From Callorhinchus milii (lineage: Eukaryota), in the NCBI RefSeq assembly GCF_018977255.1, contig NW_024704743.1, positions 22,446,001-22,510,000 on the forward strand: a stretch of DNA of 64,000 bases, written 5' to 3'. A program made the position numbers and the translations under genes. The notes beneath the pieces were generated by a model. The model saw only the letters and a list, made by a program, of their open reading frames with translations, was not told the origin of the DNA and did no database searches. Below are positions 10,175-48,549 of the stretch, piece by piece; within the stretch, counting starts at the first letter, position 1, and the number at the start of each line of letters is the position of its first letter.

Positions 10175-10239
10175 AGGGAGAAGGGAGAGAGAGAGAAGGG
10201 AGAAGGGAGAGAGAGAACGAGAGGGAAGGAGAGAGAGGG

Positions 10240-10271
<32 letters not shown>

Positions 10272-11323: not shown

Positions 11324-11703
11324 ATGTTGGGCGCTGAGAAGGCTGGTCCGGGCGGCGGGGCCCCCCCCACCGCCGCCACCACCACCACCACCCTGTCTCC
11401 TGCCGGTAACGGGCACGGCAAGGCGAGCGTGAGAAGGCACTCCGCCTCCCCGGGGGAGCGGGCGGCACCGGCACCGGTACCGGTACCCGGGGCCGGCAAA
11501 GCGGGCAGCAACCGCAGCAGCGGCAGCCCCAGCCCCGGCTCCGGCTCAGGCTCAGGCTCCGGCTCCGGCTCAGCCCCCGGGAACATGGTGGAGGCGGCGA
11601 GGACACCGGGAGAGCAGCAGCAGCAGCAGCACCCGGAGGCTGGCAGAGTGGTGGAGGGTTTACTCAGCAAATACACCAACCTGATCCAGGGCTGGCAGAA
11701 CAG
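11324..11703 (+). CDS. OSBPL10: Oxysterol-binding protein-related protein 10, coding exon 1 (Gly/Ser/Thr/Gln low-complexity N-terminus plus start of PH domain, ...VEGLLSKYTNLIQGWQNR)
   Basis: ACCATG at 11321-11326 inside a CpG island. Translation ends EGLLSKYTNLIQGWQNR, matching recalled human ORP10 EGVLSKYTNLLQGWQNR. Donor AG|GTGAGG at 11703/11704, phase 2. Confidence 0.93.
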
Positions 11704-12025
11704 GTGAGGGGGTGAGGGGTGTGGGGAGGGGGTGAGGGAGGGGGTGAGGGGGGTGGGGAGGGGTGAGGGGGGTGTGGGGGGGGGAGAGAAGTTGCTTCGG
11801 TTTTAATCGGGAACTTCCCCTGCGGGAGGGGGAGAGGGAAGGGAGAGGGGGAGGTGGTGCAGAGGGAGGGAGAGGGAGGGAGAGGGGGAGGTGGTGCAGA
11901 GGGAGGGAGAGGGAGGGTGGGAGAGAGGGAGGGAGAAGGGGAGGAGGTGCAGAGGGAGGGAGAGGGAGGGAGAGGAGGCAGAGGGAGGGGGAGAGAGAGG
12001 GAGGGAGGGAGGGAAGGAAGGAAGT
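11704..12025 (+). repeat. G-rich low-complexity tract ((GGGGGTGA)n then GGGAGA/GGTGCAGA units) at the start of intron 1
   Basis: Visible directly. Confidence 0.9.
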
Positions 12026-13009
12026 GTGTGCACTCCCAACCACCTCTTCTCCAGGCTGAAAGGTTACTCCTTTTTGCACTGGATACATTATATATATATA
12101 TATATATATATTATTTATAGAGAGAGAGAAATACTTACTTATACTATTAAAAGGTGCCATTGCATAATGTCACAAATCCCAGCAAACACAACCACCCCAC
12201 CCCACCCCCACCCGAACTGCTTATTTTGTGACAGCAGCACCCAAAATGTTACCACTTGACATTGCAGATCAGGAATGCTGTCGCTGTTGTTTTGGTGGCG
12301 ATGCTGCCTTTTTGCACGATGCACAGTGTTTTGTTAATCGCTCAGCGCGGCGAGCGTGACTTAAACGGACTGCTCGGCACCGATCATTTTGCAGTGTGCT
12401 TCAAATTTAGCACGACTTCAATAGTCAAACGTAGAAACGTGCCACTCGCTGCCCATTCCAGCTTTGGTGAAATAGTCGTTTCAAATGCATTTGTGATTGT
12501 AGTTTGGGTCAGCTGGCAATCTCGAGCGTGCAGAAGCCCTTTGCAATACTTCCCAGAAAACTTAACAGGAGCAGTGTTTCTAGTTTCTGGAGTGAACAGA
12601 CTGCCCCTCAGATGGGGCATACGGGACTTGCTTACATCTAGAGGACATAAGTGCGGGATGGTAGAAGCCAAGGCATTAGGGAGCCAAACATGTGTATTGG
12701 GGTACTGCTGGATGAAGGATCTAAAACCGTGAAGGTTTTAGATCCTATAAGACAGCTTTTGATTTCTTGCCCAAGTTGGGTCTCTTTAGCCATTGGATCA
12801 TTGGCTTATCGTAAGTTGCGTGGGAAAATTCCTCCACTGTTCGCCTCTGGACAGAATTCTACCTACCTCCTCTTTTTGCCGCCTCGTACCATATAAGTGA
12901 ATGGCGTGTATATGGGTGGTGGATAATTATTGGCTTTGGTACTGACTGCATCGACTTGGATAGATGCTCACTCCACCGCATAGCGCTGGTCTGGAACCTC
13001 AGTATCTTT

Positions 13010-14630
13010 TTTGACCCTCAACTGTCATTCTAGCCTTATGAGAATTTCACTCGCTCAGTTTTCCCTCACCTCTACAACATTGCTTTCTTCCTTCTGTCTT
13101 CCTGGGCTGCTGAGATCCTCGTTTGCTCTTTCATCGCATCCAGACTTGACTGTTCCAATGTCCTGCGTGCCAGACTGTCCATCTCTTGCCCACACAAGCT
13201 GCAGAATATCCAGAACTCTAGGACTTGTGTCGTGTACCACACTGGCTTCTGCGAACCAATCAACCCCTCCTTGCTCAGCTGCAGGCACTCCCCATTCCCC
13301 CCAGCAGTGACTGCGAATCGACTAACAACTGGGATCCTACTTACTGCTAAGTAAACAGACTTAGGTGGAGTAAGGAAACCTGAATAGCATTTCGCCCTGC
13401 CGGGAATCAATCCCAGCTTCTCTCGCTTGCGAGGTAAGTGCTCTAAACACTAAGCAACAGGACTCCACAAATGGTAAACGCAGACTGGATTCTGCACTGC
13501 CCACAGCACTGAGACAGCGCTTGTCAAAGTCACAAATGACGTCCTCCCTTTTGTGTGTCCAGAGCTCCCTCTGCCTCCTTGTCCTCTCTGCAGCGTTCGA
13601 CAGTAGATCATGCCATTCTCCTTCACTGCCTCTCCCTCATACACCTCAGTGGGACTGCACTTGCCTGATTCGAGTCCTATTTAACCAATCACCATCACTT
13701 CGTCTCCACAGACATTTTTTCCTCCCGCCCCCTTTCGATTACCTGTGGTGTATCCCAAGTCTTCACCCTTGGCCCTTCCTTTTCCTTATTTACATGCTCT
13801 CTTTGGTGATGTCATCCGCAGACACGGTGTAAACTTCCACATGCATGTGGGACACCCAAATCTGCTTCTCCGGCCGCGACTCCAGGTCCGTTGATCTTCT
13901 GAGAGCTTGTTTGCTGGACATCAAGGCTGAGATGAGCACTAGGTTTCTGACTTATTCAACCTCTCGAGCTACCGAGCCTGTACATAACCTAGGCGTCAGA
14001 TTTGATCCCCGACTGTCCTTCCTACCCCACATCCCATTCCTAACCAGGAATGGTTTCCTCCACCCATATCATATTGCCCACCTCCGACTGTACCTTGTAC
14101 CCAATGTAGCCAAGACCCTCGTCCACGCTTTCTTCACCTCCCGCCTCGATTAATCCAATGCGCTCCTCGCTGGTCTTCACGGCTCTCCTGTGCACAAAAT
14201 CCAATTCATTCAGAACTCTGCTGCCCATATACTCACCCACGCCAGGTGCCATTGACTCCCTATCACGGAACAAATTGACTTCAAAGATCCTCATACTTGT
14301 CTACAAATCTCCTCATATCCTTGTATCTCCCTATCTTTTCGGCTTGCTCCTCCTCCTCACTCCACCACCCGTCACCTCTCCTCGGCTGACTGCTTGTCCT
14401 TTGTCCCCTCCGCTCCACCATTGGCGACCATCCTTTCAGTCACGATGTCCCCGAAAGTTTGGAACACTCTCCTTCAGTCTCTCTGCCTTGTCCCCTGCTT
14501 CCCCTTTTTGAGAGCACGGCTGGAGACCTTCCTCTTCAATTGTGCTTATGGTTGTCTCCTCCCTCCCCTCGGCTCGGCGCTCAGAGACCCCACATGAAGG
14601 GTTCTGTATAAATGCAAGTTGTTGTAAAAG
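13010..14630 (+). mobile_element. L2 LINE ORF2 fragments (decayed RT) interrupted by a minus-strand SINE-A 5' half at about 13312-13470
   Basis: HSTETALVKVTND, LSAAFD, LFLIYM, VHNLGVRFDPRLSFLPHI, KTLVHAFFTSRLD motifs in shifting frames; L2 tail at about 14610-14625. Confidence 0.9.
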
Positions 14631-14819
14631 CTTGCATGCATGTGATTGTACAGGAATTCGTATGCTGTGACCCCCATTATAATATAGCACCTCCTCAAAT
14701 ATTGGGAAGACTGCTTTGGTAAAAATAAGTAAGATAGTTGTTTTCACGTTTTTGTGATCGCGACTTAAAAAAAACATAGGAATAGAACTGAACAGTACTG
14801 GAGGTGGTCAATATATATT

Positions 14820-14960
14820 TATACTGTTGCCATGTTTACCTTTATATTTATTTTTATATCATGTCTTTTTTGTACTGTTGCCATGTTTACTTTTATGTTT
14901 ATTTTTATTTATATAATTTTTTTGTACTGTTGCCATGTTTACTTTTATGTTTATTTCTCA
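14820..14960. repeat. Three-copy minisatellite (tactgttgccatgtttacttttat.tttattt..., period about 52-55 nt) abutting a SINE 3' fragment (14960-15115)
   Basis: Unit starts at about 14822, 14874 and 14926. Confidence 0.85.
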
Positions 14961-15239
14961 CAATTGCTTGTGGGACACTGCTGTACGCAATTGGTTGCCG
15001 CATTTCGCCCACAAAATACAGTTAATTCACTTTACAGTATATTTTGTGAAGATCTTTGAGATATCTCAATTAATTGATAAGGTGCAATATCAAAAGCAAA
15101 GTTTAGTATTATTATTTGTTGTTTATATACTTGCTTTATATACTTCATATATTTCCCTTTCACTTGGAATAACTTTCATTTGCTTGAGTTTCTTTAGTAA
15201 GTATCAGCAATGTAGAAATGTCCTTTTTTTTAAAAAGAA

Positions 15240-16110
15240 AATTTGTATCGCGCTCTTCATGTTGGAAAGACGTCCCAGGGCGCTGGACAGTCGGGGATTT
15301 TTGGACCCGAGTTGGGGTCAGGAAGGGTGGAGGGGAGGTGGGGGTGGGAGGGTGGCTGAAGGCACCGTCGAAGCGGGAGGTCTTTAGACGGGACTTGCGG
15401 GGGGAGAGCTTTGGAGGGCTTTGAAGGTGAGAACGAGTGTTTTGTACTCGATTCTCTGAGGGATGGGGAGCCAGCGAAGCCGGGCAAGAACAGGGGTGAT
15501 CGGTTCGCAGAACCTGGTGCAGGAGAGGACATGAGCTGCAGAGTTCTGAATAATCTGTAGCTTGTGGAGGGAAGAGTTGGGAAGTCCAGCGAGCAGGCAG
15601 TTGGCGTAGTCAAGGACGCGATGAAAGCGTGGACACGGGGTCTCGGTCTTGGCGGCCTGCGGTAGGAGGCAGGGGCGGAGACGAGGAATGTTGCAGAGGT
15701 GGGGAAAGGTGGAACGGGTCACCGCGCGAATGTGGGGCTTGAAGGATAGCTGAGGGTCAAAAAGGACACCGAGGCTTTGTATTGGTGAGGAGTGCAGCTA
15801 TGAATAGTGATAATGTCAGCGGCTGACGTGAAGAGGCGTTGCCAGGAGCCAAGCAGGAGGGCCACTGTCTTGCCAACATTGAGCTGGAGGAAGTTGGCTC
15901 TCGCCCAGGGCTTGATGTCAGACAGTCAATTAGCCAGGACATCAATGGTCCTGGAGTCGAAGGTGGAGACGGTGAGTTAGAGTTGGGTGTCATCCGCATA
16001 CATGTGGAAATTGAACCCATGCCTGCGGTTGACATCACCGAGCGGAAGTATGTATGGATTGCAGAGGAGGGAGAGCGAGGACGGAGCCCCGAGGGACGCC
16101 CACAGCCCTT
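15240..16110 (-). mobile_element. L2 LINE ORF2 3' part
   Basis: [52 protein letters not shown] on the minus strand, with the L2 tail at the left end. Confidence 0.92.
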
Positions 16111-16584
16111 TTGGTCAAAGTTCCCATTGCTTGGGATCACTTCTGTTTTCAAAAGAGGAATCTGTTAGCTTTTGTTGCAGAGGTGGAACATTTCATTCAG
16201 CATCTATTATCATTGTGTCTATTCAAAAACAATTTTTAAAAAGTCCTTAAGGTGAAGTGTTAATAATACTCTTATCACCCATTATTAGAATTACCACTTA
16301 TTCTTTGGGACCTAGTTTTCAACCTACGTCAAAATCAGTTACTATAATAACTTTGCTTTGTGGTTCAACAGAAATATTTTAGTGTGATTTAGCTAAAATA
16401 AGTATCCGTTTGCTAATGCTAAATTTGGTCTCTTTTTGTTCCACTTCGAAAATGAAGCAAATCGTTCCTACTCGGGGAGGAAATTTAGCACCTTTCTTAA
16501 ATTTCTCATCTAATTAATTTAATCTAGAATTAAAGGTTGGTAATTTACTTTGGCAAAGTGGATATTTCGTCTTGGCAGCTCATG

Positions 16585-16875
16585 TTGTCAGGCTGACTCA
16601 GTTGGTAGCTTATCACTCTTGCTTCTGAGTCAGAACGTTGTGGGTTCAAGCTGCCTCTCAGGATTTTTAACTCAATCTGAGTTGACACTCCAATGCTGTG
16701 CTGGGAATGCGGCATTTTTGGAGGTTCAATCCTTCAGATAAACGAAGAAACCATCTGCATGTTCAGGTGGAGGTCAATATCCATTGGCACTATTTGAAAA
16801 GAGAAGGAAGCCATTAATCCTCGAGTTGATTTGTATCATAGCTGTGTGCAAATTGGCTGCTCTATTTGGCCATAT
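16585..16875 (+). mobile_element. Deu-domain SINE, degenerate
   Basis: ctcagttggtagc...ctgagtcagaacgttgtgggttcaag head, ccttcagataaacg / ttggcactatttgaaaagag Deu-like core. Confidence 0.65.
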
Positions 16876-17464
16876 TAAATTCAAGGATTGTTATCCCTGT
16901 TGAAATTTTGCATCGCTCTGACCACCCCAAGGCAATCAAACAAATTTCAAAATATCTTTCGTCCCTATGTCTGCACTGTTCATCTATAGGGAGGGAATCC
17001 ACACAGATGCTTACTTCCCTATTTCCAGCATCACTAAAACCTTTGTGCTCCACTGAATATTCAGTAAACTCTGTACATCTCTCTAACCTTTGATCCCATT
17101 CCTAACAGTTTGTGAGATCAGTTATAGTATTTGCACAAGAGGTAATTTATTCTGCATTTGTTACTTTTACTGGGAAATTGATTCACATATCTACCGTCCT
17201 GTTGGGGGAAGGGGGATTTCTTATCTTTAGTACTTGGCAACTTTGTACTTCGATCTTTTAGTTCTAGATTCGCATTCCACAATTTAAAAAAAACTGTTTA
17301 CATCCACAAAAATGCATTTTGGCTTTTGAACACCTATTTGTTCCAAGGAAAATAACAACAAAAATATGAAAGGACATTTGTATATTGCTAATATTTACTA
17401 AAGAAACAAAAGAAAATTAAAGTTATTCCCAGTGAAAGGGAAATAAAGAAAGTATATAAACGAA

Positions 17465-17690
17465 GAATAATAATCCTTGCATTTGATATAGCGCCTTATC
17501 ATGTCTTCGAGACATCTCAAAGCGCTTCACAGAATACACTGTCAAATTAATTAAATGTATATTTTGTGGGCAAAACGCGGCAGCCAATTACACACAGCAG
17601 TGTCCCACAAACTGTCGTGGACTGAGTGACCAGAATATTTTAAAATTTATTTTTTTGCGGGGATTATTATGACTGGAAAAGCGATCCGCT
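17465..17690 (-). mobile_element. SINE family A 3' portion
   Basis: Same tail and body as the 6740 copy. Confidence 0.85.
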
Positions 17691-18756
17691 TAACAATAAC
17701 AACTTGCATTTAAATAGTGCCCTGCATACAGGGTAGCGTTTCAGAGCGCAAATACAAAAATAAGTTTTGTATTTGTTCCACGTTCTGCATCTCGAATGCA
17801 TTGATGACCTTTTAAGCGATGAGATGCCACAAACTACACTATTTAAATGTAGCTTCACAAGTGATCTGAACAACTTCAGAATAACTTTAGTCTTTCAGAT
17901 TAATTCTGTCATTTATTTTGCTTCACATCAACTGGTAACATTTAGCGAAAGGTCAATCTATCCAGATCCATTTTTTATTAAATGGATATGAGACTTGTGC
18001 TTTTTTTGTTCCAATATTTAGTTACATTTATGTACGTAAAAGTCAGTCTTGCATTCCTTGCTTATTACCCAGTTGATTTGGACGTTGGCTGCACAACTTT
18101 GTGTTCAATATTGTTTATGAACAGTGTGAACAGTAGGGATTCCAGAATAACCCTCTGTTACTATCTCAGTCGCAGCCTTTTCCATTTATTATTCTCTGTT
18201 TCCTATTACCAAGTGAGATTCCAATCAGTTGGCTAATTTGCATCAATTCCATGAGGTTTAACACTTCCTTTTCAAAGTTTAAGTAATTTGAATCAATCTT
18301 CTTCATCTGCTAAATGTAGTTACAAATCTGTGGGGAAACTTTGAAAAAGTTTCAATGCCTTATTATTGCTTCTACATCAACAAGAGCAGACAAAATGGTA
18401 AAATTAACCATGTCAAGTCTTGACTATCTAAGAGTTTACCAGCAAATAAAAGATCAGCAATAAAGCTGATCACTGGGCAAACCGGACAGAACTATTGTCT
18501 GCTATGTCTTCATTGCTAACTTGTGTACATTTTGATTTTCCAGAATAATGGCTGATATATAACAAGAGGTGTGCTGTGTCAACTCAATTAACACTCCCAG
18601 CCCACACCCTTGGTTTAAGTTGACTTGTTCACAGGAGTGTTGAGCAATTTGCTGAGTTGTGTAGCCTTCGTATTTCTTTTCCTCCCTGTGGTAAAATGCC
18701 TAAGCTGTTAATCATTGCTCCCACTTAGCATACTGACTAAGCGAATGAGGTTAAAC

Positions 18757-19620
18757 AAAAGGCAAGGTACTGCAGATGCTGGAAATCTGTCATAAACACA
18801 GAAGTCGCTGGAAACATGCAACAGGAAAGGCAAAATCCATGGAGAGAGGAAAATGAGTTAAGATTTCAGGTCTATGACCTTTCGTCAGAACTAGGGGATG
18901 TTGGGAGTAGATTATAAGGACAAGCAGAGAAGGGGGCGGGGAAAGAAAGACAAAAGTAAACATTTTTAGATGGAGGACAGAAGATGATGATAATCATAAT
19001 CCTTGCCTTATGTAGAGCGCCTTATCATGTCTTCAAGACGTTTCAAAGCGCTTCACAGAATATACCGTAAAGTGAATTGACTGCATATTTTGCAGGTGAA
19101 ACGCAGCAGCCAGTTGCGCATAGCAATTGGAAAAACTGGAAAAGCGATCTGTCAATCGACTAACAACTGGGTTCCTACTTACTACTAGGTAAACAGAGGC
19201 GTGTGGAATAAGGAAACTTGTGTAACGTTTCGCCCTGCTGGGAATCAAACCCAGGTCTCTCGCTTGCGAGGCAAGTGTTCTAACCACTGAGCTACAGGAC
19301 TCCCACGAGTCATGATGAAATTAGAGGTGTTGATGGTGCAAGACAAGAGGCAATAGCGGAATTATAGAACGAATGCACATCTAAGAACCAGAGAATGTGT
19401 TAATTGGTTATAGAAGAGGATGCGGGGAGGCAAGGCTGAGAGAAGGTGGGAGCTGTGGTTAGGGTCCGAAGTGATTGAAATCAACGTTGAGGCCAGAGGG
19501 CTGTAAGGTGCCCAAGAGGTGGATGAACTGCTGTTCTTCGAGCTTGCGTTGAGCTTCGTTTGAACAGCGTAGGAGGCCATGGACAGAGAGGTCACAATAG
19601 GAGTGGGAAGGAGCAAATGA
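18757..19620 (-). mobile_element. Penelope-like retroelement 3' end (GIY-YIG endonuclease C-terminus plus terminal repeat), interrupted by SINE-A at about 18990-19305
   Basis: Minus strand about 19611-19459 translates PSHSYCDLSVHGLLRCSNEAQRKLEEQQFIHLLGTLQPSGLNVDFNHFGP*, the typical PLE GIY-YIG tail (E...I..LGTL.P.GLN). Terminal repeat at 18757-18893. Confidence 0.85.
18990..19305 (-). mobile_element. tRNA-headed SINE family A, long form with internal deletion, nested in Penelope
   Basis: Head ggagtcctgtagctcagtggttag at the right end, tail at the left. Confidence 0.9.
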
Positions 19621-20556
19621 GGTTGCGTGCGTGTCTTTTGGGGAATTGTGGATACAAACTCACATCCTCTATGGCTCAGCATATCAGTAGCCCAACGTTG
19701 CTGTGGCACCCTGCAGCCTAAATTACAAAAAGATAGTTCAGTTTATTTGTGACAAGACCAACGATAATAACTGTCTTGAGACAGACCTTGAAGGAGGTGA
19801 AGAAAGGGGTCAGGCAAAACTACTTAGAGATGGAGTTCCGGAGAGTGGAGGCTGATAGGCTGAAAAGCCGACAGCGAGGGTGGGCAGGGGTTGTGACGCA
19901 GGCTAGTGCCCGCTGAGTGAGGGCGCGTGTGGGTTGATAAATTTTAAGAATGGTGCAGAGGAAGCGTGTGGCCAAAGGGATGTAAAAGTGTGGATGAGGA
20001 TCTTGCGCTTCATCCTCTGGGGGACGGGGAGGCAATGGATCTGGGAGGGGGCAGGGGTGATTTTTAGAGCCTAGTTTTAAGGACCATGTCTATAATTTCT
20101 ATAGGTTTACCTTTTTTTCGTCAGCTGGGTATTTGACACACTTGGAAATTAATCTTGATTATGAATCTGCAAACCAAGCAAATTTCCATATGTAAGTATG
20201 GTAATCATTTGTCTGATATGGAGTGCACGCTCTTTTCCCAGAGGAATGCTCCTGCTTACCTAATCTTGGAAAGTTTAGATGCAGGTTGGCAAGAAGTATA
20301 GTTTGGGGATGCCAGATTGTACACCTAAAACTGCAGTTTACCATTGTGAATCCTGGTATGCTTCCTGCTGCTGTCCAGCTATAACCACCTTACTCATTAA
20401 GGGTTTTGACTTACAGTGTTAACAGGAGCTGAGTGGGAAGAATCCCATTCCCTGGGGGCTGGTTTGCCTCTCCAAGTGTTACTAACAAACCCGGTGGCTG
20501 GTCTAATATCAGTCGTGCCTTTGAGTATTGTGTACAAGCCTGACTGAACAACTGAA

Positions 20557-20798
20557 CGCAAAATACTGCAGATGCTGGAAATCTGAAACAAAAACCGAAG
20601 TCGCTGGGAATGCTCAGCAGGTCAGGCAACAGCTATGGAGAAAGGAAAGCAAGTAAGCGTTTCGGGTCCACAACCCTTCGTCAGAACCGAACTTCAGTTC
20701 TGATGAAGGGTCGCGGACCCAAAAGGTTGACTCACTTTCCTTTCTCCACAGGTGCTGCCTGAGCCGCTGAGTTTTCCCAGCGACTTCTGTTTTTATTG
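20557..20798. mobile_element. Inverted pair of Penelope terminal repeats forming a fold-back element
   Basis: Left arm (about 20585-20687) is the reverse complement of the right arm (20697-20798); 9-nt spacer. Confidence 0.85.
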
Positions 20799-21304
20799 GA
20801 CAACTGAAGACTGTCACAGAAGGAGAATGCTCAGCTGCAAAGATAATGGCATTTCAGTATCACAGAGCTAAATTTAAATGTGGACTTACCAGTTCATTTT
20901 TCAGGTTACATGATCCATTTTGACCTGACCCAATGCCCCCGAGGGGCATTGCAGTGCATGATTAGCTTTGCTGATGATTGCTTCACGTGGACTTCATTCT
21001 GTCAGTGACTGGTTAACAATGCATCCCAATCAGTCTTTGCTGTTGACATCCATCTGTTTTACGCTTGTTTCTTGTATGTACTATCTTGCAGTTGGCCATG
21101 TTATCTGCTTAATATCTCTTTGAATGCTATCATTTACCCATAAGCAAATAGTCTGATCATGTAAGCTGGAGACGTCAACTTTTATTAAAAAAATTAAATA
21201 CTTCTTGCCATTTTTTATGATGTATGTAAACAGCTGGGGATCCAAAGCAAATACTTGATGAATTCCTCAAGCTACTCTTTGCCCAACAAGCAAGCCCTCT
21301 TCAT

Positions 21305-21865
21305 CTTATCACCAGTTACCCATTCCGCCTTTCCCCACCTCTGCAACATTGCTCGCCTTCGCCACTGCCTCTCACTGCAGGCTGTCGAGACCCTGATCCA
21401 CGCTTTCATCGTGTCCTGGCTTGACTACGCCGACTGTTTGCTCGCTGGACTTCCCAACTCTTCCCTCCACAAGCTGCTGATTATTCAGAACTTTGCAGCT
21501 CGTGTCCTCTCCTGCACTAGGCTCTGCGAACCTGTTGCCCCCGTTCTTGCCTGGCTTCACTGGCTCCCCATCCCTCAGAGGATCGAGTACAAAACACTCC
21601 TTCTCACCTTCAACGCCCTCCACGGTCTTGCTCCCCCCTACATTTACGACCTCCTAACCCCATATCAGCCTGTCCGCTCCCTCCGCTCGGCAGACACCAG
21701 CCTACTTCAGGTCCCCCGCACTTCCTGCCCCACCATTGGCGGTCGGGCATTCAGCATCTCTGCCCCCACATTCTGGAACTCTATCCCCCAATCCCTCAGC
21801 CTCACCCCTCTCCTGCTTCCTTCAAGCCTTGTCTAAAGACCTTCCTCTTCGACTTTTCCTTCGGC
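21305..21865 (+). mobile_element. L2 LINE ORF2 C-terminal fragment, largely intact reading frame
   Basis: ETLIHAFIVSWLDYADCLLAGLP...PVLAWLHWLPIPQRIEYK...RSLRS...GGRAFS..APTFWNSIP. Confidence 0.93.
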
Positions 21866-21894
21866 CAGGTAGTACTGGTGTTATATTAATAATT

Positions 21895-22280
21895 AATAAT
21901 AATAAATCATCCTTGCACTTGATATAGCTCCTTACTTATCATGTTGCTGAGACTTCTCAAAGCACTTCACAGAATATATTGAAAAGTGGATTGACCATAT
22001 ATTTTGTGGATGAAACGCGCACAGCAGCTAATTGGGGACAGCAGCCTCCCACAAACAGTCGTGGATTGGGTGACCAAATTATTATTATTTTTTTGGGAAG
22101 GGATCATTACCCCCAGAAAGTGATCCACCAATTGACTAACAACTGGGTTCTTACTTACGGCTAGGTAAACAGAGGGTTGGAGTAAGGAAACTTGCCTAAG
22201 GTTGCGCCCTGCCAGGAATCAAACCCCAGTCCTCTCTTGAGGTGAGGCGAGTGCTCTAACCAATACACTACAGGACTCTA
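21895..22280 (-). mobile_element. tRNA-headed SINE family A, long form
   Basis: Alignment by eye to the 8206 copy. Confidence 0.88.
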
Positions 22281-22569
22281 TGCTGTTCTGCAGATATTTC
22301 CAATCCATATATATGTTCTGGTAATGATCATTGAAAACCATTTACCACCAAAGGAAATTCTAAATTGGCTGAAAAAGCACGATTGTAAAGATCTTCAATA
22401 CAATAGCGAAAGACCTTTTAAATTGTCTTTTAGTGGCAATCTCGCTGAATAATACATTGTTTTGGAAATCATTGTACATACATTTTACTTGTAAGATCTT
22501 CAATGGCACAAGATTTTTAGTAGAATTCAAATGAAACCAGGTCCAAAGTACACTTGAGACAACTATTGT

Positions 22570-23480
22570 GAGGATCCTAAGCACGATCGAAGAGGAAAGT
22601 TTTCAGGCAGAACTTGAAAGAGGGGGCAACACGGAGGGATTCGGGGAGAGAGTTCCAGAGTTTGGGGATGTAGTGGCTGAAAGCACCACCTCCGCTGGAG
22701 GGTACGAGGGACGAGCAGGAGGCTTGTGCCAATTGAGCGGAGGCACTGGGTGGTGGATTGGGGAGTGAGGAGATCGGAGCGGTAAGGAGATGCCAGGAAG
22801 TGAATGAATTTGAACACGAGAGTGAGAATCTTGAAGTTGATCCATTCGGTGATTGGGAGCCAGTGGAGCCTGGCCAGAACATGTGGACATTTACGCAGGG
22901 GGAGCATATAGATGAGGAAAAGAAGAGGATGGAGCCCTGGGGTACCCTGTAGATGACCGGGCGGGGGTGGGAGGAGAAACCATTTGCTGAGATTAAATGC
23001 AGGCGGTTGGTTAAGTAGGTCTCGAATCATGCGAGTGCAATCTCACTAAGGTAGATGAGGGAGGAGGGCTGATGGAGGAGAATGGCGTACTTGACTTTGT
23101 CGAACACGGCAGAGATCCAGGAGGACGAGGTGGCAGAGATAGAAAGAATGGAGTTTGTGACTTTGACAATTGCTGTCTCTGTGCTGTGGGCAGGGTGAAA
23201 ATCAGACTGCAGGGGCTCGAGGAGAAAGAGGTGTGACCGAAGTTGACCTTCAGCAATGCGTTCCAGGACTTTGGCAAGGAAGGGTATGTTGGAGATGGGA
23301 CGGTAGTGTGAGAGATTAGAGAGATCGAGGGTGGTTTTTTTGAGTAGAGGTGTGATGATAGTGGCTTTCAGGGGGTGTGGAACAGGGCCTGAGGAGAGAG
23401 ACTGGTTGACCGTGTCGACCAGCAGTGGGGAAAGAAGGGGGTGTTGGGGAGGATGATGCAGCCGAGCGGATGTTCTCAAT
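22570..23480 (-). mobile_element. L2 LINE ORF2 fragments with internal deletions
   Basis: ITPLLKK..LD.SNLSHYRPISNIPFLAKVLE, QSDFHPAHSTETAIVKVTN, HVLARLHWLPI. Confidence 0.92.
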
Positions 23481-23564
23481 TTTTACTCGGGCCTTTCCTG
23501 TTTCTTCTATGCATTAATGACCTGGATTTGCAGACAATGTAGGCTACTTAAAATTGCAAATGAG

Positions 23565-23815
23565 TTGGGGGAATTGTGGAATCAGGGGCGGTGGCAAATT
23601 TCTTGGAAAGAGAGCTTGGTAGGGTATGCAGATGGACTGGTAGCTGACAAATGAAGTTCAATAAACCGATGCTGCATATAAGAAGCAAGAATAGCAAATG
23701 CGTGTACTTCATGGATGGAATAGAACTTGTCAAGGGAGAGGCTAGAACAGATCTAGGGGTCTTAGTTGACTCAACACTCACCATATCAAAACAGTGGGAG
23801 GCAGCAAAAAAACAA
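23565..23815 (+). mobile_element. CR1-type LINE RT C-terminal fragment
   Basis: QMKFN...LHI...N...Y.MDG.EL......DLGVLVDS.L motif. Confidence 0.8.
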
Positions 23816-24214
23816 GACAAGCAGGATACTGGGCTAGTATCTGCACGATATCTATTCACCCGAGTAGGGTGCTTGATAGTTAGTAGCATGAAAATTAATT
23901 GCCAGTGTAGGCATGGTCTCGATGTGGTCTATCATTCAATCCATATAAAATGCTTATATTTTGAATATATAACTTGGGGAAATACATGGGTATCTGCTTT
24001 CCTTTTCTCCATATTGGAATTGGTTTACTGGTTATTTCCTAGCAACTGTCATCTAGTGATGATGAAATGATCTTATTTGGCACCTTTCATGTCGGAAGGA
24101 TCCCTGAAAGCGCTTTCCCAAAATTTACTGTAAATCGTGGTGACTGTACTTTGCACGTGAAAGCAATGGCCACTTTGTGCACAGTAGTGTGCCACAAACA
24201 ACCATGTATAATAT

Positions 24215-24585
24215 AATAATAATCCTTGCATTTTATATAGCGCCTTCTTAAAGTGCTTCACAGGATGTACTATAAGGTGGTGTGAATGTGCATTTTGTGG
24301 GTGAAACGCAGCAGCCAGTTGTGCACAGCATTGTCCCACAAATAACCATGAAGTAAGTGATGAATTTTATTTGGGGTATTTGTTGGCCAGGACCCTGGGA
24401 GAAACTCCCTCCTCTTTTTGAATAGTGACATGGCATCTTAATATCTATGCGCACAGGCAGATACGACCTCGGTTTAACGTCTCATCCGAAGGACTGAACC
24501 TCCAAGAATGCATCGCGGCCCCAGCACCTTTTGGAGTATCAGCTTAGACTGTGTGATTCCAAATCCCGACCAGAGCTGGAACCCA
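24215..24585 (-). mobile_element. Deu-domain SINE (best-preserved copy), flanked by further SINE/L2 tail pieces
   Basis: Minus strand gtccttcggatgagacgttaaaccgaggtc...ttaagatgccatgtcactattcaaaaagag...gggtcctggcc matches the recalled Deu domain of AmnSINE1/SINE3-type elements. Confidence 0.8.
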
Positions 24586-25544
24586 CAATAATAATAATAA
24601 TAATCCTTGCATTTGATATAGTGTCTTATCACCTTTTGTCTCAGAGGCAAGAGTGCCATCACTGAGCCAAGCTAACAGTGAAGTGAATGACAATTTGTTT
24701 TCCTCCGGGGAATTATTGGCTGTTAAAGTGAAAGGTAGACTGGCCCAAAACCACCCCAAAGGTACCTTGAGAACTTAATATGAATTCATTTCTGGTAATT
24801 ACAATATTTACAACCTTAAAAACTATGTCAGTGTAAACCAATTTCTTCTGTTTGGTTGTGCACTAGAACATTATTCACTTTTATTACACCAGTTAAACTG
24901 TCATGTTATCCATTTCCATTAAGCAAGTACACTCGTGTACTGCACAGTGGCACACATGGACTGGCTACTGCAGTTGAGTCTGTTCAGCTTAACAATAAAT
25001 CATGTTTGCTATTGGCAAGAAATGGATTAGACTGCCAAAGAGGTGTTGATTGGACTGTTTAGTAAAGCTGAAGAAATGACCTGAATGTACAACACAATAG
25101 ACTGACTGGAAACCTCGAAGTGTCGGCAGTTTCTCCCTCTCCCGTAGATTTTTGTTTATCACAGAATATTTTAGGGTGCACAGTGGGGGGTGTAAAATGC
25201 ATTTGTTACAAACTGGATTAGTTGCATTGCAAATTCTGGTTTGCAAACGTTGGATTGTGACATTTGCAAAATGGTACATCTTGAATCAAACGCCACAAGA
25301 TATCTCAAGTGGAAGTCACTGTAAATGCAGCCATTTCCAGTTAGCAAATATTTCGCTTTCAGCCCCAGTGTAGATTCTGTCTGCAGTGAATATATTAATA
25401 ATAATCCTTACATTTAGTATAGTGCATTTTAAGTCAGGAGGACATCCCAAAAGATTTGACAAGATGTACAGGATGTACTATGTAGTGCAGTGACTGTTTT
25501 GTCAGTGAATTTGCAGTCAATTTGTGCACAGCAATGTCCCACAA

Positions 25545-26195
25545 CAACAAGATTCCATTTATTGAGCGCCTTTCATGTCGGGAGGACGTCCCAAGGCGCT
25601 GTACAGTTGGGTCAGGACCCGAGCAGGGGGGAAATGGTCAGGGTGAGGGGAGGGAAGGGAGCAAGTTGGGGGGAAATGGTCAAGGTGAGGCGAGGGAAGG
25701 GAGGGAGCGAGGAGGGGGTAGAGAGTCGAGAGGGGAGCTGAAGGCTCGGTCAAAGAGAAAGGTCTTGAGACCGGCCTTGAAGGAGGAAAGGGAGGAGGCG
25801 GCGAAGGCACTGAGGGATGGAGTTCCAGAGCCTCGGGGCTGAGAGGCTGAAGGCCCGGCCACCGATGGTAGGGCAGTTGGGGTGGGGGATGTGGAGCAGA
25901 TCGTAGCCAGAGGAACGGAGGGTATGGCAGGTAAGTAACCATGAAGTGAGTGATCAATTTTATTTGGGGAGTTGTTGGAGAGGACCCTTCTCTTTTCAAA
26001 TAGTGCCCTGGGATCTTTAATTTATTAAAGGTAACTAGTTTAAAATTTTGTCTGAAGGATGGCACCTCCAACCAAGCAGCACACCCCCAGCACTGCAATG
26101 GAGTGTCACCTTAGAAGATATGAGTTTAAAGGCTTAACGTGGGGCTGGAACGCACAAACTTCTGACTCGTAGGTGAGTGTCACCGACTGAGACGA
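25545..26195 (-). mobile_element. L2 3' end (25545-25930) inserted within a Deu-SINE (25395-25545 plus 25930-26195)
   Basis: LWNSIPQ..FKAGLKTFLF and L2 tail. Deu-SINE body resumes at aaccatgaagtgagtga after the L2. Confidence 0.75.
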
Positions 26196-27487
26196 CCTGA
26201 TGCATATAAAGAATCAAGTTACTATCACCTGAATGCTTTCTTTCAGAATATCAAATGCACAAACTGGTGTAGCTGAAGTTGTTTCTTATGCTGCTGATTG
26301 ATATGTTGCACTTTACAGAGCACGTTTTGTGATGCGTGGAACTTTCCAAACTCCTTTGCATTGACGGTAGTTGAAATCTGAAAGTGAGCCTGGATATTCC
26401 AGTTTGTTTCTTCCTGTTTTTATTTCTCAGCTCTTTAAGGTGCTGGGATACAGTTTTTTGTCAACATTAGATATTTTTGGTGTGTGAAGCTTGTTAGTGG
26501 GTAATTGATTGTGAACCAGTCGTGGAAGTAGGACAGCTCAGGTGTGGATCCCTGACTGTCCAGCGCCTTGGGACGTCCTCCTGATGTGAAAGACCCTATA
26601 CAAATGTAAGTTGTTGTTGTTGTTTGACAGTGTTTCCCTTCCCAATTGCAGTGCTGCCTTAGTACTGCCCTGGAAGAGATCAGCCCCCATAGAATAGCTT
26701 CCAAGTGTGCACAGTCTGTATAAGCAGGTTCTCTGTTGGTTATTCTTTAGCTTTAACTCGTAGAAACATAGAAAAAAGTAAATCTACAGCATAGAAGGAT
26801 TTGGCTCATTGAGTCCACAGCGGCTCACAGAGCGCATGTCTTGTAATGTCCTTGATTTCGTAGAAGGTGGCCTGATCGAGTCCATCCCGTTATTATAATT
26901 ATTCATTTCAAATATTTCTTTGCTGGAAACTGAACTGTCACTTATCTCTGATATTGCTTTGGAACTCAATACAGGTGATGCATAAAAGGCTCTGGGTGAT
27001 TTAGCATAGAAGACAAGAAAGGCCAATCAAGCCAATTTCTTCCACAGAATAGGATTAATTTGCTTTACCAGGGGCTTAATCTGACAACTCTAATATCTTG
27101 AGGGTAAAAAAGGGAATTAAGTGAAGAATGTCCATCTCTAGCCCTTCATTATTTGATTGAATAATGAAACTGTGGCCGAACTGAAGCTTTCCATGCTCCT
27201 AGTAGCCCAGCCAAATCCTGCACCATGCAGAATTTTTCCCATTTTAGGTTAAATTTTTTGATATTTTTTTTCTCTCTCCACTTAATGTGGGAACGTAACT
27301 TGCTTTCATCGTTCTGTGATCTTAGCTGATGTAAAATAAGCAAGAATTTTATGGCGAGGATTTAGTTCTGCATTTGTACTCTTAAGACAAACAATAGCTG
27401 TAATTCCTTTTCCTCTTTGAAGACTAATGGATGCTTCAACGTCCCTTTGAAGGTAGCAGGCCCAAAATGACATCCAGTATCCTAAAC

Positions 27488-27625
27488 AAAAGGCAAAATA
27501 CTGCAGGTGCTGGAAATCTGAAACAAAAACAAAAGTCACTGGGAACACTCAGCAGGTCAGGCAGCATCTATGGAGAAAGGAAAGTGAGTCAACATTTCGG
27601 GTCCACGACACTTTGTCAGAACTGG
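27488..27625 (-). mobile_element. Penelope terminal repeat with hammerhead-like motif
   Basis: Same unit as 6185-6320 in reverse orientation. Confidence 0.8.
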
Positions 27626-27729
27626 GGCATGTTGGGAGGGAGGGGCTTTTAAGGGCTTACAGAGATGGGGGAAACAGGGCAAGGAAGGCAAAGGAGGAAA
27701 TGGAGTAGAGGAGAGGGGATGATGGATTA

Positions 27730-28123
27730 AAGAGGTGTTAAAGATCCTGGTCCTCACCTCAAAGCCCTCCACAGCCTCGCTCCTCTCTAATACTGTGACC
27801 TCCTAACCCCCTACCAACCTGTCCGCCTCTGGCCTGCTTCAGGTCCCCGCCTTGCCCGCCCCACCATTAGCGGGCGGACCTTCAGACTCTCTGGCCCAAC
27901 CTCTGGAACTCCATCCCACAGTCCCTCCACCTCACCCCCTCCCTTGCTTCCTTCAAGACCCATCTCAAGACCCTCCTCTTTAATCACCCACCCACCTCTA
28001 CCCTCCACGCCCTCCACCCCTCCTGATCCCAACCACCAGCTCGGGTGCAGATCCCTGACTTCCAGCGCCTTGGGACGTCCTCCTGACGTGAAAGGCGCTA
28101 TACAAATGTAATTTGTTGTTGTC
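27730..28123 (+). mobile_element. L2 LINE 3' end with intact terminal stem-loop and (GTT)n tail
   Basis: KILVLTSKALHSLAP...TISGRTF..LWNSIPQ. AGCGCCTT-gggACGTC-ctcct-GACGT-gaAAGGCGCT at 28064-28099. Confidence 0.9.
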
Positions 28124-28451
28124 ATACATGGAGATTTAGCAAATGAGAAGTATATTCCTGGGTTAGGATTATTTTACTTGTTCTTTGAAAATAATTTGGT
28201 CTCCACATACAGAGTTCACTCCCAGTCTTCCTGCTGACGCTTTCTTGCCTACTCATGTTAGTTATTCTGTTAAAATTTGTTTTGCATATGTTTATGCTCT
28301 CCAGTTCCTACTTGCTGTGTCTTGTGGCTTAACAAGGCCTTGTATTAAGATAACTGGGACGACGACCCTAACAAGGGGTTTTGTCTTATTTGATCTCATT
28401 CTCCCAGATTACCAACCGTGGAGTCTTCCCATTGCAGCATTAAACTATGTG

Positions 28452-28932
28452 CAGTCCTATAGCTCAGTGGTTAGAGTATTTGCCTTGGAAGTGAGAGACC
28501 TGAGTTCAATTCCAGGCAGGGCGAAACCTTGGGCAAGTTTCCTTACTCCACACGCCTAATAATAATCCCTCCGAAACCAAAAACAATAATAAATTGGTCA
28601 TTTTCAATCCATGACTTTGTGGGACATTGCTGTGCGCAATTGGCTTCCGCGTTCGCCCACAAATATACAGTCAATTCACTTTACAGTATATTCTGTGAAG
28701 CACTTTGGGACGTCTAGAAGACGTGAAAAGTGCTATATCAAATGCAAGGATTATTATTATAATAATAAAATTGGTCATTTTCAATCCACGACTGTTTGTG
28801 GGACACTGCTGTGCGCAATTGGCTGCCGCGTTTCGCCCACAAGTATCGTCAATTCACTTTACAGTATATTCTGTGAAGCGCTTTGAGACATCTAGAAAAC
28901 GTGAAAAGTGCTATATCAAATGCTATTATTAT
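28452..28932 (+). mobile_element. SINE family A short form with tandemly repeated 3' half
   Basis: Head at 28452. The 3' half (aattggtcattttcaatcc...tatcaaatgc) occurs at 28592-28760 and again at 28769-28932. Confidence 0.9.
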
Positions 28933-30349
28933 ATCTGATGTTAAATGTTTAAAGAATAGTGTCACAAAAGTTTTTTTGATGATATATTGAATGTAAAGAT
29001 TGAACTCTGTTCAGGCAAAGTTTGGGGACAAACCTCTCTGCAACAGAAGTATCAGCTTCTATTCAATTGAATATTTAGGCTCGTCCTTAATCCTTCTGGA
29101 ATATATACACTTCTGACATCTTGACGTGACACTGACTAACTGTATCTAATACAGAGGAGCTAAAAATGTTTCATTAAGCTGAAATTTGTAAGAATAGTAG
29201 ATTTTTTTTATTTTTGTAGGGCAGGACTCATTTGGGGAAAACCTCTCTCTGCAGCAGAATAATTAGATTCTGTTCAATTGAATATTTAAGCTAGCCCTCA
29301 GTCCTCCTGGAATTTATACATATATTTTTATTGGCAGATAACAAGTATATTGCATTTACTTTCAGGCAGTGTAGCCCTTTACGTTCCAGAACATTAATTT
29401 AAACAGTATTGGGAACAGGATGCTTGTGTGGGGGGATATAGCCTTGTACAGTATCTGCAAAACCCTGAGCCCTTCTTGAGACCCAAATTAAAACAGCAGA
29501 TCTGGCAAAAAAAATGGGTGAACATTCTTGATTATTTAACTATACTTTTGTAGCTGATTATAAGTTTTGTGATGTGTAGTGTTACAGTAGAAAATAGTAA
29601 GTAGATTATTATGAGATGCTGTGCTGCACTTGAGCTTTTATAGCTGTACAGACAGTGAGGATGCTCTGGGTGATAATAAGGCAAATGTTTGTTGTATGCA
29701 GTATTTTAAATTAATTGTTAAATCATATTTGAGGTTTCATTTTTCAAAGAATATTTAGGCAGGTCCTTAGTCCTCTCTTTTTCAAAGAAATCTTGCTCTA
29801 TTATAATTACAGCTTCTGAATGATGGTCCATTTTGCCAAACGTATTTAAAAATCTAAATAGTGTAAAGCAAAAAATTAGAGTGAAAATTAAATTTTTTAA
29901 AAAAAAGCCAAACTTCAGGACACAAAATACAAGGAGATGCTTAGAAAAAAGCACAACTTGCACTTACATAGAGCCTTTCATTTATAATTTGTAATGTCCT
30001 GGTGAGGATAGGCTTGCAAAGCCTGGTATGGTTACAAAAATAGTGTCACTGCAGTATTACATAATATCTTGTGAAGGAAGAGCTTTGAGATGTCCTTGAT
30101 TTTATAGGCCCTGTATTAAATATAAGTATTATGTAAAAGGCTGTGGAGCCGTGGGCCTTGTGGATGGTTGCACTGTGAATGCTGACAAGACAGGCATTGT
30201 AAGATGACAAGGGTGTTTATGAGGGTTTTGTTCTACTTTGGGGGAATGTTAGGAATGAAACTGGACTTGGCCAAGGACCATATGAATGTCTTACAGAAGA
30301 TCTGAGGGTTGAAAATTCCAGGATTGTGCAAGAATGAGTAGTTGGGGAG

Positions 30350-30800
30350 GTTGATACGGTCGGTCAGATGCGTTGTGGCACTGATTGGAGCCATGCAGGT
30401 TGACTTCTTGACATTTCAGTTGAATGAAGGTGAGGTTCATCCGGGTCTTGATGTTTATCAGGGTCCTAGATTCCAAATTAGATGGAACAGTTGAGTTGCA
30501 TATCTTCTGTATACATTTGAAAGTGAACCCTGTTTGAGCATGTCACCAAGGAGAATATGTCGACAAGGAAAATGACAGGGCTAAGGACAGAGCCCTGAGT
30601 GTGACCATGCAGAGACATAGTGAAGACATTGGGGCAGGTAAATGGTCCAGTGGAGGAAGATGATGGAGAAGGATGTAGTGGAAGACTGTCAAAGGTACAG
30701 AGAGTAACCTCTGGTTGCAGACTGAGGATGTCATTGGTAATTTCGACTGAGTCCATCTCAATATTGTGTGCTGGTGGAATCAAGATTGGAGATCATCATA
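30350..30800 (-). mobile_element. Old L2 RT fragment
   Basis: Minus strand QGSVLSPVIFLVDI...FQMYTEDMQL. Confidence 0.7.
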
Positions 30801-31714
30801 CAGAGTGAGGGAGTTAGGAGTTTGCATGTGTGATCTGAATGGCCTGTGAGGATAATGTGAAAAACAGATTATTTTAGAGGAAAGAGAAAATTAACTGCTC
30901 CCACTTCTAGACTTTGGGTCAATTACACATCATTATAATTACAATGAAACCTGTCTTCCAACAGCCTCTCAGGGGACTGGGCCAAAGTGGCCTTTATATA
31001 AGTTTGGTCTCCGAGTAAAGGCTTGTTGGTGTGTGACCGCATAATAAAGGGACTGTTCCAGGGTGGTTGTTAACTAAAAATTATGCAGTCAAACCGGTTC
31101 AATCGAGTTGAACTGGTTTGACTATAATTTTTAGTTCACAAGTTTGGTTCAGATGAAGAAGGCCTTTCGATCCATTTGAGCTCATCCTTCCAGAATACAC
31201 ACCCTACAATTTTCCCATCACAACATCAAGCTGTTTCTTAACAATAATAATTATTATTAACAGTACTGTGGGTAAGTAAATAATTTCATGGTCTCTGTCC
31301 TGTAATTGCCTTTTGCTACCCTGAACCTTTGTCCTCCCTTTCTGCCATGGCATATCTGAATATTATTTTCAATTTACATTTTCAATCTTCAGTTTACAAT
31401 CTTAAATATACCCTATAAAGACCCCTCTCAGATATTTTCAAGGCTCTCTTATACCTGTCTATTCCCTCTCCTTCATGTCTGCATGAAGTCTCTTATACCT
31501 GTCTATTCCTTCTATCTTCTATATCCCTCCCACACTCCCGTTGACTTCAACATCCAGCTTGGGTGCAAAACCCTTGAGTGTCCAGTGCCTTGGGATGTCT
31601 TCCCGATGTGGAAGATGCTATATAAATACAATTTGTAGTTGTCTACTTGGCATAGTTGGTGTACAAAATCAGTGGCTTCATATGCTCTTTCCACTTGTTG
31701 GTATGTCCAAAGAA

Positions 31715-32125
31715 AGGACATAAACTTGTATATGATAGCTTGATGCAGATCTGAAAGGAAGTTTAGGAAGAACCGCTTTATGCAGGGGATGTGAGAATGT
31801 GGAACTCCCTGCCAGGAACTGTGATTCAAGCAAAATGCCTCAATGTATTTAAAGGGAAACTTCATGCATACATGAAGGAGAGGGAATAGACAGGTATAAG
31901 AGAGACAATTAGAAATGTGGAGTATAATTTCTGGCACAGACTAGTTGGGCCAAATGGCCTATTTCTGTGTGGTATCATTTTGTGTATATTAGACAAGTGC
32001 ATACAGAAGAAACATATCCAAGCCTAAAGGGAAAGAGCAGGGAATTGGGGTTTAGAAGGAGCAAACATGGAAAACATGGGTCAGATGGCCTCCTGTTGTG
32101 CTGTACTTTTAAATGGTTCTATGAT
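31715..32125 (+). mobile_element. CR1-type LINE 3' fragments
   Basis: RKNRFMQG...MWNSLP..VI.A.....FKGKL motif and tgggccaaatggcct 3'UTR. Confidence 0.75.
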
Positions 32126-32671
32126 AGGCCATGAATTTTATCATCTCTTTTTCAGTCTTCCTCCTACTTTCATTCTCCATTGTTCTCACTCAGCATCTCC
32201 CACCTACTTCTACTGTAGTTTGTAGGGACAAGATTGCAATACTTCATCGTAGGGCACAAAGTTTGACTGACTAAGCTATATGAGGTGAAATGGCCAATCA
32301 CTTTCTTTGATCACGATCCTTTCTCTGAAAAACACCTAGTATTTTTTTTAAAAATGACTCAATACTCGGCTTCCTAGTAATAAGTAGCCAAATGCATACA
32401 GAAGAAGGGTATCAAAGGGTAAAGGGAAAGATCAGGGAATCGGGGTTTTGAATACCGGTAGGTTACTGTGCTAATATACCAAAGATGGATTTCTGTTGCA
32501 TGCTGCTATGGATGCAATTGTACAAATGTACTTAAGCTAGATTCTGGGTTTGCTGTGAAATATCTGATTGCGACTGATTGTAATTTATAAATGTGCTTTT
32601 CTAATTAACAATAATTGTTTTTAATCTTTTCTCTCCTGTTTTTATTTATGGATATTGGCCCTGTGACATAG

Positions 32672-32737
32672 TCATTTTGAACATATACAGGGTTATCTTA
32701 TGAAATATACCAACCTTGTGAGCGGATGGCAGTACCG
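32672..32737 (+). CDS. OSBPL10: Putative alternative cassette exon (66 nt, phase 2-2) encoding (S)HFEHIQGYLMKYTNLVSGWQY(R), an OSBPL11-type PH beta1-beta2 segment
   Basis: Acceptor TAG at 32669-32671 follows a pyrimidine tract and an AG-free zone (32541-32669). Donor CG|GTAGGT at 32737/32738. Length is a multiple of 3 and phases fit exon 1 and the 42179 exon. Peptide paralogous to the end of exon 1. Confidence 0.85.
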
Positions 32738-42178: not shown

Positions 42179-42354
42179 GTATTTTGTTCTGAACTCGGAG
42201 TTGGGTGTGCTGCAGTACTTTGTAAACGAACAATGCAAAGGTCAGAAGCCAAGAGGAGTCCTGCATTTGTCTGGCGCCTTGATCTCACCCAGTGATGAAG
42301 TTTCCCACATGTTTGTAGTCCAAGCTGCCAATGGTGAACTGTATAAACTCCGAG
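42179..42354 (+). CDS. OSBPL10: OSBPL10 canonical exon 2, PH domain core ([58 protein letters not shown])
   Basis: Acceptor tacAG at 42177-78, donor G|GTATTG at 42354/55, 176 nt, phase 2 to 1. Strong match to ORP10/ORP11 PH domain. Confidence 0.96.
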
Positions 42355-48469: not shown

Positions 48470-48549
48470 CTGGAGATGCCAAAGAAAGACTCTACTGGGT
48501 GAACCAGCTTCAGGCTTCTGCGAAATACCACACTGAAAGTAATGTCAAG
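48470..48549 (+). CDS. OSBPL10: OSBPL10 canonical exon 3, PH C-terminal helix (AGDAKERLYWVNQLQASAKYHTESNVK)
   Basis: Acceptor ctgcAG at 48468-69, donor AAG|GTAAAA at 48549/50, 80 nt, phase 1 to 0. Contains the invariant PH helix Trp. Not in the ORF track. Confidence 0.95.

Follow-up and report, generated by a model that had tools for sequence, protein, structure and literature searches.

Two copies of a PH-domain beta1-beta2 segment in OSBPL10 of Callorhinchus milii and the probable separation of ancestral splice forms between OSBPL10 and OSBPL11

OSBPL10 and OSBPL11, the genes of the ORP-family proteins ORP10 and ORP11, very probably embody alternative splice forms of a single ancestral gene, now fixed in different genes, the exon concerned having been duplicated in stem vertebrates. 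The locus examined here is a 64,000-nucleotide (nt) stretch of the Callorhinchus milii genome, hereafter the window (NW_024704743.1; C2:22446001-22510000), which covers the opening six coding exons of a plus-strand ORP-family gene and corresponds to the 5' half of OSBPL10, six further coding exons following beyond it to about C2:22569700. In this gene, exon 1 carries one copy of the segment encoding the beta1-beta2 region of the PH domain (copy 1) and a 66-nt cassette exon in intron 1 carries another (copy 2), so that the locus retains the two-copy state that an earlier sequence-only reading of the window had proposed as ancestral.

The gene is the OSBPL10 (ORP10) orthologue, as that reading had assigned it. 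In a tree built without the duplicated segment, it falls inside the vertebrate ORP10 clade (support 100/100) as the sister of sharks and rays, with whose ORP10 its exon 3 shares 88-95% identity, and Oxysterol_BP exons are found at C2:22.557-22.569 Mb besides the PH domain. The ORP trees comprise a quick version with 35 rows and a careful one with 19 rows, in which ORP9-like rows, long invertebrate branches, and near-duplicate vertebrates were left out. Exon 1, whose presumed start codon is the first ATG in the open frame, encodes a low-complexity N-terminus followed by copy 1 and ends at the donor AG|gtgagg, preceded by the residues ...LSKYTNLIQGWQN. The cassette is bordered by an AG acceptor and the donor CG|gtaggt, and no stops occur through window exon 6 in either the skipped (345 codons) or the included reading (367 codons). 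Moreover, a degenerate pattern of the segment has three matches in the 991.5-Mb genome, namely exon 1, the cassette, and exon 2 of OSBPL11, and none in the reversed control; the surroundings of the cassette are single-copy DNA. Among the 243 stop-free, frame-keeping AG..GT pieces of 60-78 nt in intron 1, KY.N is present in three, two of which are the cassette with alternative donors and one of which is unrelated. The splice borders, the 2-2 phase, the open readings, and the genome pattern search thus confirm the duplicated PH-strand exon that had been proposed in intron 1. The zone free of AG upstream of the cassette is 129 nt long vs. 25-49 nt at four neighbouring constitutive acceptors, and may have a regulatory role. 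A donor look-alike near position 32450 was discarded as a chance occurrence, as the top score of the cassette region within intron 1 (28) was also reached by 92 of 100 shuffles.

In OSBPL11 of the same genome (contig C6), exon 1 ends in KGWQY with AG|gt and exon 2 is a 69-nt exon of phase 2-2. Intron positions and phases agree throughout the exon maps of both genes, and the ten next internal exons measure 176/176, 80/80, 192/186, 208/205, 158/149, 147/141, 496/499, 187/187, 183/183, and 154/154 nt (OSBPL10/OSBPL11); since these exons are alike in phase and length, the cassette occupies the position of OSBPL11 exon 2. A bony-fish-like OSBPL11 locus, the single match of a metagenome scan (L040), likewise shows KSWQY with AG|gt and a 69-nt exon 2, and the mammalian ORP11 models P0183 and P0417 join other sequence at S-DHMEN, an indirect sign of the intron. 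The 66-69-nt, phase 2-2 exon predicted to follow GWQY-S in OSBPL11 and the intron at that position are therefore present at both loci. The ORP11 sequence quoted in the prediction agrees with the mammalian ORP11 proteins retrieved (e.g., P0083), but the likeness of the included junction to it, described as almost residue for residue, amounts to 11 matches over 17 aligned positions and one gap.

One segment copy is found in all 116 gnathostome ORP11-type proteins examined for it (116/116), and these, together with the own-genome locus and L040, indicate that OSBPL11 fixed the cassette copy, as had been suggested. Of 168 ORP11-type proteins, which range from sharks to mammals, 144 have WQY before the junction and 138 also have K two positions ahead of it; in 24 of the 168 models other upstream sequence lacking WQY is joined to exon 2. 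The proteins of Styela, Ptychodera, Pomacea, Hydractinia, and Haemaphysalis have an exon-1-type copy that mostly carries KGWQ, which explains the origin of the ORP11 WQY remnant: an invertebrate-type KGWQ is its likely source on sequence grounds, in line with the proposal that GWQYS of ORP11 is the vestige of an exon-1 strand. WQY (L028:4805-4819) is conserved beyond the needs of a splice site and may have a function of its own.

The cassette resembles exon 2 of OSBPL11 more than the exon-1 copy of its own gene, matching the former at 16 of 21 residues and the latter at 10. Its profile scores are 52.1 bits for ORP11 exon 2, 27.5 for invertebrates, and 24.3 for ORP10 exon 1, and in a tree of the 21 segment columns it belongs to a set with ORP11 exon 2 (support 97/90), the grouping that the sequence-only reading had predicted. 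In the same tree, a grouping of the cassette with its own exon-1 copy, which would have pointed to a recent duplication, is rejected by the approximately unbiased (AU) test (p-AU 8e-6), as is a grouping with chondrichthyan copy 1 (p-AU 0.009). Between the cassette and OSBPL11 exon 2, which are 67% identical as DNA, the proportion of non-synonymous differences (pN) is 0.15 and that of synonymous differences (pS) is 1.11 over 18 codons, the corresponding values for the constitutive exon 3 pair of OSBPL10 and OSBPL11 being 0.19 and 0.91. Saturated synonymous sites and a pN/pS like that of constitutive exon 3 point to an old cassette under purifying selection.

The ancestral two-copy state is also directly visible in lamprey protein models. 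In a lamprey cluster of ten members, both copies are present in six, a skipped form 25 residues shorter is present in three, and one is truncated; the two-copy models read EGGLSKYTNVVKGWQS followed by SDANQLESVQG(A/P)LMKYTNLVQGWQYR. Included and skipped forms are both predicted for Petromyzon marinus, Lampetra planeri, and Lethenteron reissneri, so that at the level of models the segment is alternatively spliced there. The invertebrate profile gives the best score for lamprey copy 1 and the ORP11-exon-2 profile for lamprey copy 2; a separate lamprey duplication, with both lamprey copies together, is rejected (p-AU 0.005). These models, the segment tree, and the AU tests support the suggested ancestor with tandem beta1-beta2 copies. 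A second gene of cyclostomes, represented by P0386 in lamprey and by P0235 and P0257 in hagfishes, has copy 2 only, with GYL and LVT as in ORP11, and its lamprey isoforms (P0386 and P0240) differ by one Ser at the junction, as expected for tandem acceptors; this gene possibly represents a parallel fixation of inclusion. Elsewhere, a screen of 151 proteins from a search of 50% representatives found one copy in 53, the tunicate, hemichordate, mollusc, cnidarian, and tick species named above among them, and two in none, and a search for the two-copy segment among cluster representatives (90 hits, 96 candidates) returned no two-copy protein besides the lamprey query. Among 60 ORP10-type proteins, one copy is present in 40, the region is absent in 20, and two copies are present in none; neither a mammalian ORP10 nor an amphioxus protein was identified, and birds, lungfish, teleosts, and elasmobranchs stand in for the former.

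The proposed history would have begun in stem vertebrates, where the 3' end of exon 1 of a single ORP10/11 gene would have been copied with its donor into intron 1. The duplicated piece would have encoded beta1, the beta1-beta2 loop, and the first half of beta2, and the copy would presumably have gained a phase-2 acceptor. The next exon supplies the rest of beta2 (R|YFVL), so that either copy joined to exon 3 builds the domain; skipping would thus give a PH domain with copy 1, and inclusion one with copy 2, copy 1 being left as a loose N-terminal tail. As copy 2 replaces copy 1 in the fold, the cassette would act as a substitution of the membrane-wedge motif that binds phosphatidylinositol 4-phosphate (PI4P). 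The gene would then have been duplicated within a chromosome-scale block. In OSBPL11, inclusion would have turned constitutive and copy 1 would have decayed to (K/R)xWQY, while OSBPL10 would have kept both copies, a state that persists at this locus and in one lamprey gene. Since other jawed-vertebrate OSBPL10 models show the skipped form alone, the OSBPL10 cassette would later have been lost or nearly silenced, after cartilaginous and bony fishes parted. The separation of the copies between the paralogues therefore holds for OSBPL11, where it is resolved, but was not reciprocal at the gene duplication, because OSBPL10 here keeps both; paralogue-specific copies are seen in OSBPL11 and in the ORP10 protein models of birds, lungfish, teleosts, and elasmobranchs.

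The OSBPL10 (C2) and OSBPL11 (C6) contigs are large and carry two of four Hox-type clusters, probably HoxA and HoxD, and each gene lies near another Oxysterol_BP gene. The split between HoxA/B and HoxC/D took place in the first round of genome duplication (1R; PMC12198301), which is common to cyclostomes (PMC10972751). The gene tree disagrees with a 1R date, as it places ORP10 and ORP11 together (97/94) against the cyclostome genes (83/73), a grouping that falls to 67 after 4-state recoding, and the lamprey rows are compositionally biased. On amino acids, one-to-one orthology was rejected both for the two-copy lamprey gene paired with either ORP10 or ORP11 and for the copy-2-only gene paired with ORP11 (p-AU 0.007, 0.007, and 0.013); after recoding, one-to-one cyclostome orthology is rejected only marginally (0.036; Shimodaira-Hasegawa test 0.17). 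Under every cyclostome placement tested, the sequences imply that both copies were already present when ORP10 and ORP11 split. If the gene tree is right in setting ORP10 and ORP11 apart from the cyclostome genes, inclusion would have been fixed twice.

Both copies contain the complete consensus LxK(aromatic)TN(hydrophobic)2xGWQxR, with its Lys and Arg kept, and match the beta1-beta2 motif that makes most of the PI4P and micelle contacts in the PH wedge of FAPP1, CERT, and OSBP (Lenoir et al. 2010, PMC2854595). The end of the motif, R followed by an aromatic and a hydrophobic residue (R|YFVL), is supplied by exon 3, so that it is complete only in the copy that is spliced to exon 3. The residues at the wedge tip differ, copy 1 having L-I/L-Q and copy 2 L-V-S/T (LIQ to LVS). 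In an alignment-based AlphaFold model of the included lamprey form, copy 2 provides the strands at residues 59-66 and 73-81, and residues 25-54, and with them copy 1, have a predicted local distance difference test score (pLDDT) below 50; the single-sequence model of that protein was uninformative (mean pLDDT 42). The human ORP11 PH-domain structure 2D9X aligns from copy 2 onward, and matches in a protein atlas were to generic PH clusters only. Human ORP10 is targeted to endosomes through its PI4P-dependent PH domain (PMC8624802), and a 2024 paper asks what sets ORP11 apart from ORP10 (PMC11302984). In the history favoured here, the 21-residue PI4P/membrane-wedge loop is the oldest difference between the two proteins, and the lamprey and chimaera genes, able to make both versions on one backbone, offer a natural control. 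A swap of the copies might alter function or the choice of membrane, a suggestion to which we give somewhat less than an even chance. More doubtful is the fuller proposal that the cassette switch is still regulated in lampreys and chimaeras, was frozen twice in parallel (in OSBPL11 and in the second cyclostome gene), and explains through its 21 residues the different targeting of human ORP10 and ORP11, WQY having gained a new and long-kept role.

Four runs (X1-X4), chosen among eight guessed to be RNA, were checked through their contigs over window positions 30000-49999; the contig joints and loose ends considered are those among the rows listed (575 joints and 2147 loose ends come in addition, the tables being crowded by repeats). 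In X2, X3, and X4, contigs span the junction between exons 3 and 4, their upstream part comes from outside 30000-49999, and their match begins at 42175 with no mismatch, which fits a join to exon 1 and not to the cassette; skipping in this species is thus supported. In X1, the mean depth in the bin 32668-33334 is 10.6 vs. 8 for the unspliced contig, an excess that would fit a contig of about 26-fold depth over a 66-nt exon, or any short piece, and is not counted here. Inclusion of the cassette in this species at present is nonetheless likely.

Several observations weigh against the separation of splice forms or parts of it. Inclusion was not seen in the four runs, no X2-X4 contig covering the cassette and the X1 contig over it being unspliced. 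The segment tree has only 21 columns, its clade of all copies 2 is supported by 89/87 and not starred, and a grouping of the cassette with all ORP10 exon-1 copies survives the AU test (p-AU 0.10). Furthermore, pS is 0.56 between the cassette and its own exon-1 copy, vs. 1.11 to OSBPL11, over only about ten sites. The lamprey isoforms are predicted models, with exon borders read from isoform differences and not from DNA, and both the loss in other lineages and the absence from invertebrates rest on protein models rather than genomes. The AlphaFold result is biased, as the alignment placed nearly all single-copy rows on copy 2. The surviving AU test and the low pS would favour a later, lineage-specific cassette, either a duplicate of its own exon 1 that subsequently converged or a transferred OSBPL11 exon 2, the lamprey case being separate. 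This origin appears highly improbable, as the L>Y, S>M, I>V, and N>Y changes would all have had to recur, and in an exon of identical position and phases; the AU rejections given above stand against it, and a recent transfer would have left a DNA identity higher than the 67% found.

An ancestral cassette that survives here as a silent relic, no longer spliced in, would agree with the three of four runs that show the skipped form only and with the 21 elasmobranch ORP10 models whose N-terminus is intact, none of which is an included isoform. We regard it as unlikely, since non-synonymous conservation equals that of a constitutive exon at saturated synonymous sites, the frame, AG, GT, and long AG-free zone are intact, and contigs lose rare variants, so that missing cover in X2-X4 is no evidence of silence. 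Splicing of the cassette from an alternative first exon inside intron 1, whereby the copies would never meet in one protein here, could be suspected from the 24 ORP11 models in which exon 2 takes other partners, but is very improbable: intron 1 has no second GC-/CpG-rich island, its 29-33 kb part is CpG-poor, lamprey models join copy 1 to copy 2, and in ORP11 exon 1 is joined to exon 2. A closer contest concerns what the history meant for function. The same events may have involved no functional partition, the copies being equivalent PI4P loops and the paralogues being retained for reasons of dosage or expression and each having drifted towards a single splice pattern, and this stands only slightly below an even chance. 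The complete consensus in both copies fits such equivalence, as does the report that both human paralogues pair with ORP9, with no difference in cell-line expression (PMC11302984). However, distinct fixed residues stand side by side in lamprey and in this genome, the wedge tips differ, and a sphingolipid change is present in the ORP11 knockout and absent in the ORP10 knockout (PMC11302984).

Separation of splice isoforms after gene duplication is a known process, described for MARVELD3, CALU, CACNA1S/1F, and U2AF1 (Abascal et al. 2015, PMC4494069, where a reservation is likewise made about subfunctionalisation in the strict, functional sense) and treated also in PMC9741552 and PMC4417111; the ORP case differs in pairing a first-exon copy with a cassette. 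As in the Abascal cases, homologous exon copies in the vertebrate ancestor were followed by gene duplication; there each paralogue kept one copy, as do OSBPL11 and the ORP10 protein models from outside this genome. MARVELD3 is closest in its staggered order, with one paralogue resolved first, the other later and in some lineages only, and a few species still in the intermediate state. Those cases are mutually exclusive exons (CUX1 apart), whereas the ORP copies are not: copy 1 lies within constitutive exon 1 and lamprey models have both in tandem, translated together with the upstream copy displaced, so that they resemble an exclusive pair in the fold only. Moreover, OSBPL11 was resolved through decay of the constitutive copy, which left a conserved remnant. 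In PGM1/PGM5 (Martinez-Gomez et al. 2022, PMC9741552), one duplicate keeps both copies and the other one, as do OSBPL10 and OSBPL11 here and the two cyclostome genes; unlike PGM1/PGM5, however, no human gene seems to keep both ORP copies, so that human-centred catalogues would miss the case. Helix 2 of COE/EBF (Daburon et al. 2008, PMC2394523) likewise arose by tandem exon duplication before the cyclostome-gnathostome split, with a new splice site, a symmetric cassette, and later compulsory inclusion, but there both helices stay and all gnathostome paralogues include the exon, whereas OSBPL10 and OSBPL11 diverged in this respect and, on inclusion, copy 2 takes the place of copy 1 in the PH fold. 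In the literature searched, neither the ORP10/ORP11 exon case nor a splicing-made alternative of the beta1-beta2 motif was found described for ORP9, ORP10, or ORP11: OSBP genes have no mention in the main text of PMC4494069 and no row in the supplementary table of PMC8373072, the supplements of PMC4417111, one file apart, name only OSBPL1A, and an ORP-family phylogeny (PMC10243569) mentions neither exons nor splicing. The case thus offers a passage from isoforms to genes with living intermediates, in a form invisible to surveys based on human mutually exclusive exons.

Table 1. Segment copies and exons of OSBPL10, in window coordinates.
Feature	Position	Strand	Remarks
OSBPL10 coding exon 1	11324..11703	+	Ends in phase 2; aligned with shark ORP10 N-termini
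Copy 1 of the PH beta1-beta2 segment (VVEGLLSKYTNLIQGWQN-R), ancestral type	11648..11703	+	0-1 residue from elasmobranch ORP10
Cassette acceptor region	32541..32671	+	129-nt AG-free zone; pyrimidine tract set back from AG
Cassette exon, 66 nt, copy 2 of PH beta1-beta2 (S-HFEHIQGYLMKYTNLVSGWQY-R)	32672..32737	+	Phase 2-2; homologous to OSBPL11 exon 2 in position and sequence
Constitutive exon 3, 176 nt	42179..42354	+	Second half of beta2 (R|YFVL) and PH body; spliced contigs in three runs
Exon 4, 80 nt	48470..48549	+	PH C-terminal helix; contigs join exon 4 to exon 3
Exon 5, 192 nt	51526..51717	+	Exon map
Exon 6, 208 nt	61123..61330	+	Exon map

Downstream of OSBPL10, an STT3 gene is arranged tail-to-tail with it (exons at C2:22.598-22.613 Mb, minus strand), as is the case for human OSBPL10. 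The neighbour of OSBPL11 on its upstream side, at a distance of 17 kb and in head-to-head orientation, is a gene of the GPD1 family (C6:10777265-10777504, minus strand; L026:7265-7504); GPD1L holds the corresponding position beside human OSBPL10, which suggests an ancestral linkage retained on different copies. Part of OSBPL11 exon 6 is repeated in nearly identical form (LMLKATTMATINCLNDCFHI) about 360 bases into the next intron (C6:10812289-10812360; L030:2289-2360), which looks like a younger partial exon duplication. Within the window, positions 9928-12100 form a GC- and CpG-rich promoter region, and long (GA)n and G-rich simple repeats flank exon 1. Four single N bases (6929, 37302, 44425, and 49671) touch no exon. 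A short interspersed repeat has many copies in the introns (22186, 28542, 52393, 54764, 62728, and others) and is covered very deeply in all four runs.

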